The notes: generated from the sequence alone by a model not told the origin. Numbered from the stretch's first letter, positions 772-32,963 are shown. The stretch is DNA of 64,000 bases from Escherichia coli (GCF_024700885.2 NZ_CP117016.1), one strand, 5' to 3'. Translations and numbers: made by a program.

Positions 772-1059
772 ATGGATATAACACCTTTCCTTCATGCACT
801 TTGTGCTGTGGCTGCGCAGGTACTGGTTGGTCTTTTTACCGGAAACTGGGCTTACGGGGCGATAGCCGGTTGTACGTTCTTCATTGCGCGTGAACACACC
901 CAGGCAGAATATCGCTGGATCGAAATGTTCGGGCATGGCAAGCGAATGAATATGCCGTGGTGGGGCGGTTTTGATACACGTGCATGGGATGTGGCAAGCC
1001 TGATGGATTTTGCTGTGCCGGTGGTGGCGTGTCTGCTGATCTGGCTGTTGATCCGTTAA
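772..1059 (+). CDS. Small hydrophobic membrane protein, hypothetical (phage moron-like)
   Basis: 95-aa ORF with two hydrophobic helices; strong RBS AAGGAGG 5 nt upstream of ATG; follows the tail-fibre-like ORF. Confidence 0.4.
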   Translation: MDITPFLHALCAVAAQVLVGLFTGNWAYGAIAGCTFFIAREHTQAEYRWIEMFGHGKRMNMPWWGGFDTRAWDVASLMDFAVPVVACLLIWLLIR

Positions 1060-1064
1060 ATATA

Positions 1065-1110
1065 AAAAGCCGCAGTAACTTGCCATGGCAGGATACTGCG
1101 GCTGGTTTGT
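1065..1110. terminator. Bidirectional terminator-like hairpin between convergent genes
   Basis: Inverted repeat agccgcagta / tactgcggct (1068-1077 and 1094-1103), flanked by A-run upstream and T-rich tract downstream. Confidence 0.4.
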
Positions 1111-1166
1111 GAGTTTAAATAGTGTGTTTATTGCGGTATATTTAAAGGACTTAATGGATTACATAT

Positions 1167-2543
1167 CTATGATATTCCTGAGATATCCTCTTCAAGCTCT
1201 TTTACTGATTTCGCAATTTTAAATTTAAACTTCCTCTCTATTTCACTATTGCTAAGTTTTTTTTCCTTCTCTTTACCTATCCACATAGAAACAAGTTCTC
1301 GTTTCTGAGATATATGTAAATTATCAAAGTTAGGTATGTATTTAAAAGTCTCCGCTCTACCTCTGCGGAGTTCATAGAAAGTTTTAATCAAAGACTTTGG
1401 TTTTATTTCTGATGAAAGGCCGAATCGGTGGATAAGATTATTGATAGTATGATTAACAGAGCGAAGTTGAGCTGTTGAGGTTATTTGTGAGAAGTACGAT
1501 ACCCATCCCAATCGTTTACCTTCAAACACACATCCCGTAATTCTGAGATTTAGTTTCCACTGACAATATGCAACAGCTCGTTCTTTATCACGCTTACTTT
1601 TAGCTTGTAGTAGAGCGTGCCTGTATGCAGTAAAAATCCTTGCTAAAGATGACTCAAATCTAAGAATGCTCTCATGTTTTATCAATAATTCTCGATTTTC
1701 TATGTGGTATCCCAAAAAGTTAAAACTTTCATCCAAGCTGCCTACTTTGGATTTTGAGTTCTCTTCATTTAATGGATGTGGGTTTAAATTTAATGATTGA
1801 AGCTTATCAATGATATGAGAAGCTATTTTTGTTGCTTGATATTTTGGTGTTAAAATAAGAATGTCATCAACGTATCGCATGTACCATATGTCATGCATTT
1901 TATTGATTTCATCATCAAAATTAGATAGTGATATTTCAGCTAAAATGTTTGATATCGCTAATCCCTGAGGTACCCCTCTGGTATTATTCGGGATACCTTT
2001 GCTTCCTGTTGTTCCACTTACAGTAGGCACGATTAATGATGATGTTATTAACTGTCTAATTTCTTTTTTTCTAATTTTATTTTTTATTGTATTAATTATC
2101 AATTTATGTTCAATTGAAGGATAGAAACTTTTAAGATCTATTTTTGCATATTCAGCATAAAGACTGCTGTTTAATGCTTCTTTCAATGAGTCAATTACTG
2201 TATGTGGTAGTTTTAATCTGGAGTTAGGATATATTTCCGTAAGGCATTCACAGAGAGTTCTAAGAGTAATTCTGTCCCTAGCAGTTGGTATGGAAATCTG
2301 TCTGGGTGTAGAGTTAGCGCCTTTAGATATTAATTTTTCTTTATATGCTGTAAATTTGTAATTGCCAGAGTTAACCTTTTCAAAAATGAAAGCGATCTCA
2401 TTTTTTATTGTCAAATCAAGTTTTGATGGGCGAATCCGATCTATGCCAATCGCTCCTGATTCTTTGATTTTTTCAGTGTATACTTTTAGAAGGTTTTTTT
2501 TCGAGAATGACTTTTTAAAAATTCTGCTTGCAGTCATAGTCAA
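1167..2543 (-). CDS. Reverse transcriptase, non-retron, defence-associated (UG/Abi/DRT-like); exact family unassigned
   Basis: 458-aa ORF with ordered RT motifs: PRQISIPTARDRITLR, KIDLKSFYPSI (catalytic Asp), GVPQGLAISN, YMRYVDDILIL (YxDD), FLGYHI; plus ~150-aa helical C-terminal extension. AT-rich. Confidence 0.8.
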   Translation of the reverse strand: MTMTASRIFKKSFSKKNLLKVYTEKIKESGAIGIDRIRPSKLDLTIKNEIAFIFEKVNSGNYKFTAYKEKLISKGANSTPRQISIPTARDRITLRTLCECLTEIYPNSRLKLPHTVIDSLKEALNSSLYAEYAKIDLKSFYPSIEHKLIINTIKNKIRKKEIRQLITSSLIVPTVSGTTGSKGIPNNTRGVPQGLAISNILAEISLSNFDDEINKMHDIWYMRYVDDILILTPKYQATKIASHIIDKLQSLNLNPHPLNEENSKSKVGSLDESFNFLGYHIENRELLIKHESILRFESSLARIFTAYRHALLQAKSKRDKERAVAYCQWKLNLRITGCVFEGKRLGWVSYFSQITSTAQLRSVNHTINNLIHRFGLSSEIKPKSLIKTFYELRRGRAETFKYIPNFDNLHISQKRELVSMWIGKEKEKKLSNSEIERKFKFKIAKSVKELEEDISGIS

Positions 2544-3066
2544 TCCAAAGATATATTAATGGGAGTATATAAAGGGCGGCAGTAGTAAATATTCGAAGTA
2601 ATATCCATAAAATAACAATTATTTTTTCTTTTTGTGTGGGGATCCTCGTCGTAAGTCCAACTTGAGTTACCCTTGAAATTTTATCATCTATGTCACGGTG
2701 ATTCTCAACCTCATTGAGCAAATTAAAATATTTTTCTTTCTGTTCAAGAGTTAACTGTTGACTGGTGGTAATGTCAAAATAGAGTCGCTGTAGTGCAATA
2801 TAATTCCTTCTCATGGCTATTGCTCGACCACGAAAATCTAGGTTAGATACGATCAGCGAAATACCCAGTAGGGCCACCGAAAGTATTGCCGCAACGATAT
2901 CTGTGTTATCTCCTAGAACTTTTGGAAATCGCAACGTTACAATTGAAAGTACCGCACTCAATATAGCATACCAAACGAGGATAAATTGAGAGTGCTTTTC
3001 AAGCCATTCTAGTCGATGGTGCGCTTGGATACGGGCTTTATATGTAAACCAAATATTGTCATGCAT
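2515..3066 (-). CDS. Multi-pass membrane protein with SLATT-like topology; putative effector partner of the RT
   Basis: 183-aa ORF with hydrophobic helices ILVWYAILSAVLSIVTLRF, IVAAILSVALLGISLIVSNL and C-terminal IIVILWILLRIFTTAALYILPLIYLWI. Its stop overlaps the RT start by 29 nt on the same strand. Confidence 0.5.
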   Translation of the reverse strand: MHDNIWFTYKARIQAHHRLEWLEKHSQFILVWYAILSAVLSIVTLRFPKVLGDNTDIVAAILSVALLGISLIVSNLDFRGRAIAMRRNYIALQRLYFDITTSQQLTLEQKEKYFNLLNEVENHRDIDDKISRVTQVGLTTRIPTQKEKIIVILWILLRIFTTAALYILPLIYLWIDYDCKQNF

Positions 3067-3288
3067 AAAAGATCCTTTTTAAAAGCGGAAGGGGCAGGAT
3101 ATATTGGAATCATTGAACATCCTGCCCGGCAGGATCAGTGAGCATAAGCTCAACAGTAAAATATTACTGTTCATTATCAGAGCCGCCCTTGCATGCACAA
3201 GAGGAAAAACCTGCCCCATCCTTTTGAATTATTACAATTTAATGATCTTAAAGTCAATACAAGTGAATGGTGTCCAGAGATGATGAAC

Positions 3289-3537
3289 TTAATGAACAAA
3301 CCACTCGTCAGCAGACTCCCAGGTATCTTTCAGAGTTTCCTGAACAAAAGTTTTAGCTGAATCTTTATCGGCGGTGCGCGTAACAGAAAGGCCATCGTTG
3401 CTGGTGGCTTTTACGATCACCTCTACATCGTCATAACGCTTACTGATGCGTCGAGTTAATTCTTCCTTTAACGCATCCACAGCACCGCTTGGCATTTTAG
3501 TCATTTTCTCTTTAGCTATGCAGATCTCAATACGCAT
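3289..3537 (-). CDS. DinI-family DNA-damage-inducible protein (prophage-type)
   Basis: 82-aa [12 protein letters not shown]...[11 protein letters not shown]...[16 protein letters not shown] matches the DinI family pattern. Confidence 0.7.
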
Positions 3538-3552
3538 AAAAATCCCTCTACA

Positions 3553-3596
3553 CTGTGTTTGTATACAGTGTTATTTTTAACTGTATGAATAAACAG
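3553..3596 (-). promoter_or_regulatory. Two tandem LexA (SOS) boxes upstream of the dinI-like gene
   Basis: CACTGTGTTTGTATACAGTG (3551-3570) and CTGTATGAATAAACAG (3581-3596) both fit CTGT-N8-ACAG, 16-60 bp upstream of the minus-strand start. Confidence 0.6.
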
Positions 3597-3756
3597 TGTC
3601 AATAGAACAAAGATTGCTGCATGTACAAATGTTCTTTGGCTACAAATACACCTACTGATCATGTTCTGCTATGCTCTGATACCTCCAAAATGTACAATCA
3701 GCGGCATGAATTTTTCTTTGTACATATGATTGTACATAATTAAAGAGACAACAATT

Positions 3757-5343
3757 ATGACAAGCCTTTTGGCCGCAGAGGTAGCGAAAAGAAGAACCTT
3801 TGCAATTATTTCTCACCCGGACGCCGGTAAGACTACCATCACCGAGAAGGTGCTGCTGTTCGGACAGGCCATTCAGACCGCCGGTACAGTAAAAGGCCGT
3901 GGTTCCAACCAGCACGCTAAGTCGGACTGGATGGAGATGGAAAAGCAGCGTGGGATCTCCATTACTACTTCTGTGATGCAGTTTCCGTATCACGATTGCC
4001 TGGTTAACCTGCTCGACACCCCGGGGCACGAAGACTTCTCGGAAGATACCTATCGTACCCTGACGGCGGTGGACTGCTGCCTGATGGTTATCGACGCTGC
4101 AAAAGGTGTTGAAGATCGTACCCGTAAGCTGATGGAAGTTACCCGTCTGCGCGACACGCCGATCCTCACCTTTATGAACAAACTTGACCGTGATATCCGC
4201 GACCCGATGGAGCTGCTCGATGAAGTTGAGAACGAGCTGAAAATCGGCTGCGCACCGATCACCTGGCCGATTGGCTGCGGCAAGCTGTTTAAAGGCGTTT
4301 ACCACCTTTATAAAGATGAAACCTATCTCTATCAGAGCGGTAAAGGCCACACGATTCAGGAAGTCCGCATTGTCAAAGGGCTGAATAACCCGGATCTCGA
4401 CGCTGCGGTTGGTGAAGATCTGGCACAGCAGCTACGTGACGAACTGGAACTGGTGAAAGGCGCGTCTAACGAGTTCGACAAAGAGCTGTTCCTTGCGGGC
4501 GAAATCACTCCGGTATTCTTCGGTACTGCGCTGGGTAACTTCGGCGTTGATCATATGCTGGATGGCCTGGTGGAGTGGGCCCCTGCGCCGATGCCGCGTC
4601 AGACTGATACCCGTACCGTAGAGGCGAGCGAAGACAAATTTACCGGCTTCGTATTTAAAATTCAGGCCAACATGGACCCGAAACACCGCGACCGCGTGGC
4701 GTTTATGCGCGTGGTATCCGGTAAATATGAAAAAGGCATGAAGCTGCGCCAGGTGCGCACTGCGAAAGATGTGGTGATCTCCGACGCGCTGACCTTTATG
4801 GCGGGTGACCGTTCGCACGTTGAAGAAGCGTATCCTGGCGATATCCTTGGTCTGCACAACCACGGCACCATTCAGATCGGCGACACCTTTACCCAGGGTG
4901 AGATGATGAAGTTCACCGGTATTCCGAACTTCGCACCAGAACTGTTCCGTCGTATCCGCCTGAAAGATCCGCTGAAGCAAAAACAGCTACTCAAAGGGCT
5001 GGTACAGCTTTCCGAAGAGGGCGCGGTGCAGGTGTTCCGTCCGATCTCCAACAACGATCTGATCGTTGGTGCAGTTGGTGTGCTGCAGTTTGATGTGGTG
5101 GTAGCGCGTCTGAAGAGCGAATACAACGTTGAAGCAGTGTATGAGTCAGTCAACGTTGCCACTGCCCGCTGGGTAGAATGTGCGGACGCGAAGAAATTCG
5201 AAGAGTTCAAGCGTAAGAACGAAAGCCAACTGGCGCTTGATGGCGGCGATAACCTCGCTTACATCGCTACCAGCATGGTCAACCTGCGCCTGGCGCAGGA
5301 ACGTTATCCGGACGTTCAGTTCCACCAGACCCGCGAGCATTAA
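3757..5343 (+). CDS. prfC: Peptide chain release factor 3
   Basis: ORF matches RF3 ([21 protein letters not shown] GTPase motif) essentially throughout; the first ~8 residues differ from the K-12 N-terminus as I recall it. Confidence 0.9.
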
Positions 5344-32753: not shown

Positions 32754-32963
32754 AAAATATCCTCATCCTTTCAACAACGAGCACCTGACATCAGGTAATT
32801 GGATAATAGCATTTTTTGCTGTTTTAGCATTCAGTGTTTTTTTCTTAGTAGAGTATGTTTTAGGACTTGACGGAAATAAAAGTATTGAGATTTTGTTCTT
32901 AATCAATATGTTATTTACCGTGACGAACTAATTGCTCGTGTAATAGATAAAAATGGTAACAAT

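Follow-up and report, generated by a model that had tools for sequence, protein, structure and literature searches.

The 64-kb stretch of Escherichia coli DNA analysed here (the window) carries, near its left end, a DRT10 defence cassette that appears to have been inserted between the stop codon of a LexA-controlled dinI homologue and that gene's own terminator. The reading we favour, with moderate confidence, is that of a LexA-repressed dinI gene followed by an autonomous DRT10 module, for which read-through during the SOS response would be a secondary input. Both dinI and DRT10 are of known kinds, and the novelty is modest: the DRT10 lineage already under study occupies an SOS-controlled unit and has displaced the terminator of that unit. 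Because of this arrangement, SOS coupling of DRT10 is easy to test. LexA binding, the extent of read-through, and any effect on defence are inferred.

The dinI-like gene and its LexA boxes

The dinI-like gene and its predicted control region comprise the following features:

3289-3537, minus strand: dinI-like gene, 82 aa
3544-3548, minus strand: ribosome-binding site GAGGG of the dinI-like gene
3551-3570 (core 3553-3568): LexA box 1, CACTGTGTTTGTATACAGTG, 14-33 nt before the ATG, covering the presumed start of transcription and the 5' UTR
3573-3578, minus strand: predicted -10 hexamer AAAAAT of the dinI promoter (promoter scan; 18-nt spacer)
3579-3598: LexA box 2, 20-mer AACTGTATGAATAAACAGTG, with its core CTGTATGAATAAACAG at 3581-3596, 44-59 nt upstream of the ATG, between -35 and -10
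3597-3602, minus strand: predicted dinI -35 hexamer, TTGACA (10 of 12 matches in the promoter scan)

By sequence, the open reading frame is a full-length DinI homologue and a member of the DinI family. It matches the Pfam profile DinI (PF06183) at 70.5 bits (1.5e-19, against a cut-off of 24.2) over all of its positions (1-63 of 63), and aligns end to end with E. coli DinI (PDB 1GHH, E=2.9e-13), residues 1-81 lying on residues 1-79. The C-terminal acidic helix of DinI is kept and aligns with TWESADDWFV of 1GHH. These matches bear out the gene assignment made in the first-pass annotation, and the RefSeq label for 3289-3537 is 'DinI-like family protein'. Homology suggests that the product binds RecA filaments and modulates co-protease activity.

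The window copy has its fold family, length, and C-terminal acidic helix in common with the product of the chromosomal E. coli dinI gene, and both promoters contain a LexA operator. Unlike the chromosomal gene, it is prophage-borne, horizontally acquired, and located at the right end of a prophage, by attR. The chromosomal K-12 dinI has a single LexA box with a CCAG arm, whereas the window copy has two boxes with perfect arms. A preprint on radioresistance in EHEC that names dinI was set aside, as it concerns the chromosomal gene and not prophage copies.

The predicted promoter has the form TTGACA-18-AAAAAT (3602-3573), with its spacer filled by box 2 and its expected start covered by box 1. 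Two CTGT-N8-ACAG boxes within 60 bp of the dinI-like start had been reported from a first inspection of the sequence; both are present, and they are the only two matches to this motif in the window. Each fits the consensus TACTG(TA)5CAGTA at 15 of 20 positions. All 20-mers of the window were also scored with a LexA weight matrix built from 18 E. coli operators (which themselves score 13.3-26.9 bits). Box 2 ranks first at 22.5 bits and box 1 second at 19.2 bits, with the next 20-mer at 13.2 bits. By these sequence criteria, the dinI-like gene is a member of the LexA regulon, with a predicted promoter and presumed LexA binding.

That the boxes are chance palindromes, and the small open reading frame not a regulated dinI, is scarcely credible: one such match is not rare (0.71 expected per 64 kb, with at least two in 17 of 100 shuffled sequences), but these two lie 28 bp apart within the promoter of a DinI homologue, outscore every other 20-mer, and are kept in 61 of the 62 related viral prophage loci that include upstream DNA, with variation confined to the N8 spacers while the arms stay constant.

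Two further signals were noted in the course of these scans. A terminator scan reported a plus-strand 'terminator' at 3550-3571, which is the palindrome of LexA box 1. The third-best LexA-like 20-mer, TGCTGTTTTAGCATTCAGTG, is found in the rob-creA intergenic region (32817-32836); its score is at the bottom of the range for known sites, and it is probably a chance match.

The DRT10 cassette and its non-coding RNA

Downstream of dinI, and in the same orientation, are the components of the module and the hairpin beyond it:

1069-1102: hairpin GCCGCAGUA...UACUGCGGC, a bidirectional terminator (RNAfold -22 kcal/mol), followed on the minus strand by UUUUU (1068-1064)
1113-3288, minus strand: DRT10 cargo, 2,176 bp (alignment with the empty site L042)
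1167-2537, minus strand: UG17/DRT10 reverse transcriptase (RT), 456 aa from the ATG at 2537 (PADLOC RT_UG17, 2.1e-158, 525.7 bits; Pfam RVT_1)
2515-3066, minus strand: SLATT_5 two-transmembrane protein, 183 aa (Pfam SLATT_5, 4.8e-28; PADLOC RTasSLATT, 7.9e-57, 189.8 bits)
3085-3221, minus strand: DRT10 ncRNA, 137 nt (coordinates deduced by transferring the Eco_3_DRT10 numbering, in which A occupies positions 107-110, by template position)
3103-3115, minus strand: A-B-A' template CAAU-GAUUC-CAAU (read from the sequence), the same as that of Eco_3_DRT10 and specifying the cDNA repeat GAATCATTG
3228-3257, minus strand: predicted promoter of the DRT10 module, with TTGACT (3257-3252), an 18-nt spacer, an extended -10 TG (3236-3235), and AATAAT (3233-3228) (promoter scan)

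DRT10 is a defence system consisting of an ncRNA, a SLATT protein, and an RT (bioRxiv 10.1101/2025.10.16.682844; bioRxiv 10.64898/2026.04.29.721553). According to both preprints, the RT is protein-primed and copies a short A-B-A' template within the ncRNA into tandem-repeat DNA. For Eco_3_DRT10, both tandem-repeat cDNA and phage defence have been published; its cDNA repeat is GAATCATTG, its cDNA is made constitutively, and S456 is the priming residue of its RT (Tang et al., bioRxiv 10.1101/2025.10.16.682844).

The module at 1113-3288 is, by sequence, a DRT10 (UG17-A) system of the Eco_3 type. This identification follows from the RT_UG17 and RTasSLATT scores, a template and S456 as in Eco_3_DRT10, and covariation in the ncRNA. 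The RT_UG17 profile is matched over positions 1-429 of 429, and the RT has a YVDD motif and a C-terminus ending in SGIS, with the serine at residue 456. Window and Eco_3_DRT10 share the order ncRNA-SLATT-RT, overlapping protein genes (by 23 nt in the window), and a 456-aa RT with YVDD and a final serine; their template, CAAUGAUUCCAAU, is identical and their ncRNA architecture alike. The module itself is no different from Eco_3_DRT10, and by this likeness it would be expected to synthesise repeats and provide defence. What differs is the setting inside a LexA-controlled dinI unit, which is absent from both DRT10 preprints. The tyrosine recombinase found near DRT10 belongs to Eco_1 and Eco_2, not to Eco_3.

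The position of the insertion can be read from a locus with an empty site (L042). Homology between this locus and the window extends to the dinI stop codon at 3289 and resumes at 1112, just before the hairpin, so that the 2,176-bp cargo stands in place of a 57-nt spacer between stop codon and hairpin. In L042, the hairpin after dinI is a bidirectional terminator, common to dinI and the convergent last gene of the tail-fibre region; in the window, it is common to the dinI unit and a convergent 95-aa open reading frame ending at 1059. Of 80 viral dinI loci, 72 have a conserved spacer after the stop codon, followed by a G+C-rich hairpin of -10 to -24 kcal/mol. On this comparison, the hairpin at 1069-1102 is the displaced dinI terminator, now located beyond the RT gene.

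It had been claimed that no convincing terminator separates the dinI-like gene from the membrane-protein/RT pair, and three lines of evidence now agree with this claim. A consensus terminator scan found no terminator-like site on the minus strand of 3067-3288; the 67 nt from the dinI stop codon to the start of the ncRNA contain no U-run and form a structure of only -3.2 kcal/mol; and the empty site indicates that the terminator-less state is derived. With the dinI terminator now behind the RT gene, there is no obvious barrier to the entry of SOS-driven transcripts into the module.

The space between tail-fibre genes and dinI is one of the cargo ('moron') slots at the ends of lambdoid prophages, and holds differing cargo that falls into 16 sequence classes across 81 loci. 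Most of these classes start after the dinI hairpin, whereas the DRT10 cargo lies before it, inside the dinI unit. Other cargo at this hotspot includes the cdtABC toxin genes in phage cdtI (L002), pin/ynaE in PhiR63_1 (L003), an acyltransferase-like open reading frame, and IS elements. The hairpin marks the point at which the 16 cargo classes diverge. Across L004-L083 its stem has undergone compensatory changes, for example GCAGCACGT/ACGTGCTGC, GCGGTACGT/ATGTACCGC, and GTGGCACGT/ACGTGCTAC. These features suggest a recombination or boundary element that doubles as a terminator.

The distance from the dinI-like gene to the membrane-protein/RT pair, given as 222 bp in the first-pass annotation, is correct (3067-3288). 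The view of this interval as a passive spacer does not hold, as it contains a predicted, conserved sigma-70 promoter and the 137-nt DRT10 ncRNA. The start predicted for this promoter, 7 nt past AATAAT, falls at 3221, which coincides with the deduced 5' end of the ncRNA. Homologues with 78-83% RT identity have the same -35 and extended -10 elements, spaced from the 5' end of the ncRNA as they are here, and a related promoter of TTGATT type lies upstream in homologues with 62-63% RT identity. The ncRNA of a related UG17-A system is transcribed independently from its native promoter, and its basal stem is essential (Sanchez-Nieto et al., bioRxiv 10.64898/2026.04.29.721553). Prediction and literature together point to a sigma-70 promoter belonging to the DRT10 module itself and conserved in distant homologues. 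An independent promoter within 3067-3288, combined with module transcript levels that do not change on SOS induction, had been named beforehand as evidence against SOS-driven read-through; for the first half of this condition, a promoter is predicted there, and the literature agrees with it.

The ncRNA has a G+C-rich basal stem of 11 pairs (GGAUGGGGCAGG/CCUGCCCCUUCC), four internal stem-loops, and an open template loop. A consensus fold from an alignment of ten homologues contains 35 pairs, of which 8 show compensatory changes. Directly after the ncRNA 3' end is a UUUU tract (3084-3081, minus strand), which is not conserved and is missing in several homologues; the basal stem and U4 are not a canonical terminator. 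The SLATT ATG follows the ncRNA 3' end after only 18 nt, and a promoter scan detected no internal promoter between ncRNA and SLATT, so the SLATT-RT mRNA must read through the ncRNA.

The ncRNA also contains the series GGCAGG, CCUGCC, GGCAGG, and CCUGCC, which makes two mutually exclusive pairings possible. When the 222-nt region is folded on its own, the 5' GGCAGG pairs with the middle CCUGCC and the template comes to lie inside a hairpin; the comparative fold favours the 5'-3' basal stem and a local SL5. A switch based on the alternative pairing was rejected, as this pairing cannot form in the homologues with 62-63% RT identity. An Rfam scan of 900-3800 at a permissive threshold returned only noise (eukaryotic miRNA and snoRNA models), and no Rfam family for the DRT10 ncRNA.

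In most close relatives (including L086, L094, and L115-L119), the template loop is CAAC-GGUUC-CAAU, with CAACGGUUC in place of CAAUGAUUC. By the published rule, this loop predicts a different repeat, GAACCGTTG. Sister alleles of one DRT10 cassette would then make different repeat DNAs.

Distribution, natural variants, and possible SOS read-through

Of 5,426 complete E. coli genomes, 187 carry the DRT10 cargo, at 189 places, and the junction of ncRNA, dinI, and boxes is contiguous in 180 of these 187 genomes. Strains FDAARGOS_536, CE10, and IHE3034 match the region at or close to 100% identity, and carriers of the element include ExPEC, NMEC, and ETEC strains. The segment comprising dinI and its boxes (3289-3620) is found in 1,780 of the 5,426 genomes, at 3,357 places, which makes the dinI module about 18 times commoner than its DRT10 cargo. 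It is also carried by many lambdoid phages, among them cdtI, 2H10, PhiR63_1, and Stx phages. The combined dinI-DRT10 unit occurs in prophages at prfC, yecD/aspS, and dusA, and its homology starts exactly at the dinI -35 hexamer. In eleven divergent DRT10 loci, all in unrelated contexts, the 700 nt upstream of SLATT contain neither dinI nor a CTGT-N8-ACAG motif. On this sampling, the link to dinI is a trait of the E. coli lineage (180 of 187) and not of DRT10 in general.

Several natural variants alter the link between dinI and the module. In a clade of about 94% identity (L115, L116, and L119, which are E. coli R14, p11A, and MS6192), dinI is frameshifted and has in-frame stops, the ncRNA, SLATT, and RT are intact, and the dinI promoter and LexA boxes are retained, with box 2 of L119 weakened by the change of an ACAG arm to CCAG. 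Two further loci (L087, at 1390-1760, and L099) have DRT10 after only the last ~130 nt of dinI, without LexA boxes; their neighbours are genes for an ImmA-like peptidase and an XRE-type repressor, and their template is CAAUGAUUC, as in the window. From this context, the cassette has apparently moved to another element, carrying a fragment of dinI. The pseudogene beside an intact module, together with the divergent loci lacking an upstream dinI, led us to reject DinI as an obligatory partner of DRT10. In the viral contigs L065/L107 and L090, IS2 is inserted a few bases past the dinI stop codon, between the LexA-controlled dinI promoter and an intact DRT10; these loci amount to a natural uncoupling experiment.

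The favoured reading of a repressed dinI and an autonomous module would operate as follows. LexA dimers on box 2, between -35 and -10, and on box 1, over the start, would keep the dinI promoter shut until RecA-stimulated LexA cleavage opened it and allowed expression of a RecA filament modulator of the DinI type. Promoter, dinI, and hairpin together make up the right-end module that is conserved across a large family of lambdoid prophages in E. coli. The cassette would have been inserted once between the dinI stop codon and the terminator hairpin, and then have travelled with the dinI module among prophages. The DRT10 promoter would fire at ~3221 to give the 137-nt ncRNA, and continuation past the ncRNA 3' end would yield the SLATT-RT mRNA. 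Following the published work, the RT would constitutively copy the CAAU-GAUUC-CAAU loop into protein-primed tandem repeats of GAATCATTG, with SLATT as the presumed membrane effector. Because the cargo displaced the terminator, induced dinI transcripts would most likely run at least into the ncRNA gene. At the basal stem and U4, they may stop, be processed, or go on into SLATT-RT. Read-through would be a real but secondary addition to the activity of the module's own promoter, and not the switch that turns defence on.

The proposal that SOS read-through couples the module to DNA damage or prophage induction is therefore retained in part. The LexA operators, the co-orientation of the genes, the lack of an intrinsic terminator, and the dinI hairpin past the RT gene all speak for it, while the module's own predicted promoter and its published independent and constitutive activity speak against it. 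SOS coupling of DRT10 is possible, and read-through could occur, but it is not needed. Indirect evidence from comparison suggests that the downstream genes do not rely on the LexA-controlled promoter: the module has its own promoter, persists with IS2 in between or without boxes, and has homologues that lack boxes.

A stronger form of coupling is unlikely. In it, read-through from the de-repressed dinI promoter would be substantial enough to increase the amounts of ncRNA, SLATT, and RT, and damage, induction, or SOS-triggering phages would prime or trigger defence. The co-oriented genes with no terminator before the end of the RT gene would permit it, and the junction preserved in 180 of 187 genomes, the mobile unit that begins at the dinI -35 hexamer in all three integration contexts, and the boxes that persist above a frameshifted dinI are what it would lead one to expect. 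However, a single insertion, followed by recombination via flanking homology and hitch-hiking, accounts for the linkage of dinI and DRT10. The conserved promoter and constitutive cDNA synthesis argue against strong coupling, as do the eleven divergent loci, the IS2 insertions, and the dinI remnants without boxes. Moreover, a read-through RNA would place a ~320-nt 5' extension on an ncRNA whose basal stem is essential. The near-complete linkage and the boxes kept by the pseudogene could nonetheless mean that the SOS promoter carries more weight for the module than our preferred picture of a secondary input allows.

[quoted passage not shown] 2011, PMC3121763). There, as here, the dinI homologue belongs to a prophage, has a LexA box in its promoter, and comes first in a unit that extends, here putatively, into the genes downstream. 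However, the gene downstream in Gifsy encodes an antirepressor, which governs induction and relies on the LexA-controlled promoter for its expression, whereas in the window the cargo is a defence cassette with a promoter of its own, and most relatives have a hairpin directly after dinI. Set beside the Gifsy operon, the window shows the co-orientation and absence of a terminator that co-transcription calls for, alongside a conserved internal promoter. Another relative is the LexA-controlled Tum of phage 186, a DinI-like fusion. In the literature library searched, no paper was found that links SLATT-domain systems with LexA, which also weighs against strong coupling; dinI, SOS, and LexA go unmentioned in both DRT10 preprints.

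Complete insulation, whereby dinI transcripts end before or at the ncRNA gene (through Rho, RNase processing, or the basal stem and U4) and there is no regulatory tie, is quite unlikely. The 67 nt past the dinI stop codon offer neither hairpin nor U-run, and although UUUU abuts the ncRNA 3' end right after the 11-pair G+C-rich basal stem, the SLATT-RT mRNA must itself pass this point, so that it cannot be a tight terminator; several homologues, moreover, lack the U-tract. The accumulation of the ncRNA as a discrete species in published DRT10 work is in keeping with insulation, and with a dinI module so much commoner than the cargo, adjacency need not be functional.

One extension of the coupling idea, which we regard as a long shot, is a feedback loop in which LexA cleavage would boost ncRNA, SLATT, RT, and repeat ssDNA and lower the activation threshold, while co-induced DinI would restrain the activation of RecA by the kilobase-long repeats. 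If true, a defence RT would be joined in a loop with host ssDNA/RecA surveillance, and the threshold would be lower in cells that are damaged, infected by SOS-triggering phages, or undergoing prophage induction. SbcB is already known to influence this host surveillance.

Interest in DRT10 stems from its RT, a bacterial enzyme whose tandem-repeat products resemble those of telomerase, and the activation logic of DRT10 is only partly understood, involving constitutive cDNA synthesis, ExoI, and a phage SSB-like trigger. In E. coli, the experimentally studied Eco_3-type cassette is almost always found within a dinI unit under LexA control, whose terminator it displaced. This suggests, as a concrete and cheaply tested hypothesis, that damage to DNA or ssDNA stress could act as an extra regulatory input. 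Caution is warranted with plasmid constructs, whose 'native flanks' may or may not include the dinI promoter. Should the link prove inert, the locus still shows defence cargo slotted into, and spreading with, a conserved prophage-end module.

The prophage right end

The left 3.8 kb of the window belongs to a lambdoid prophage and makes up its right end, which extends from tail-fibre genes as far as attR:

3805-3818: attR core ATTATTTCTCACCC, located within the 5' end of prfC and marking where the prophage truly ends on the right (window compared with phage cdtI and K-12)

Phage cdtI matches the window through 3818, while K-12 matches only from ~3777 onwards. Because the cdtI match runs to 3818 and the core lies at 3805-3818, the phage supplies the prfC promoter and the first ~13 codons; the K-12 version is MTLSPYLQEVAKRR. 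The phage-supplied prfC promoter region stands back to back with the LexA-controlled dinI promoter (3600-3818). Four of the window's 12 TGTACA palindromes are clustered in a 115-bp stretch of this region (3622, 3691, 3719, and 3731), between the dinI promoter and prfC. These clustered palindromes may be integrase arm-type sites, or sites for other binding proteins, in the phage arm of attR.
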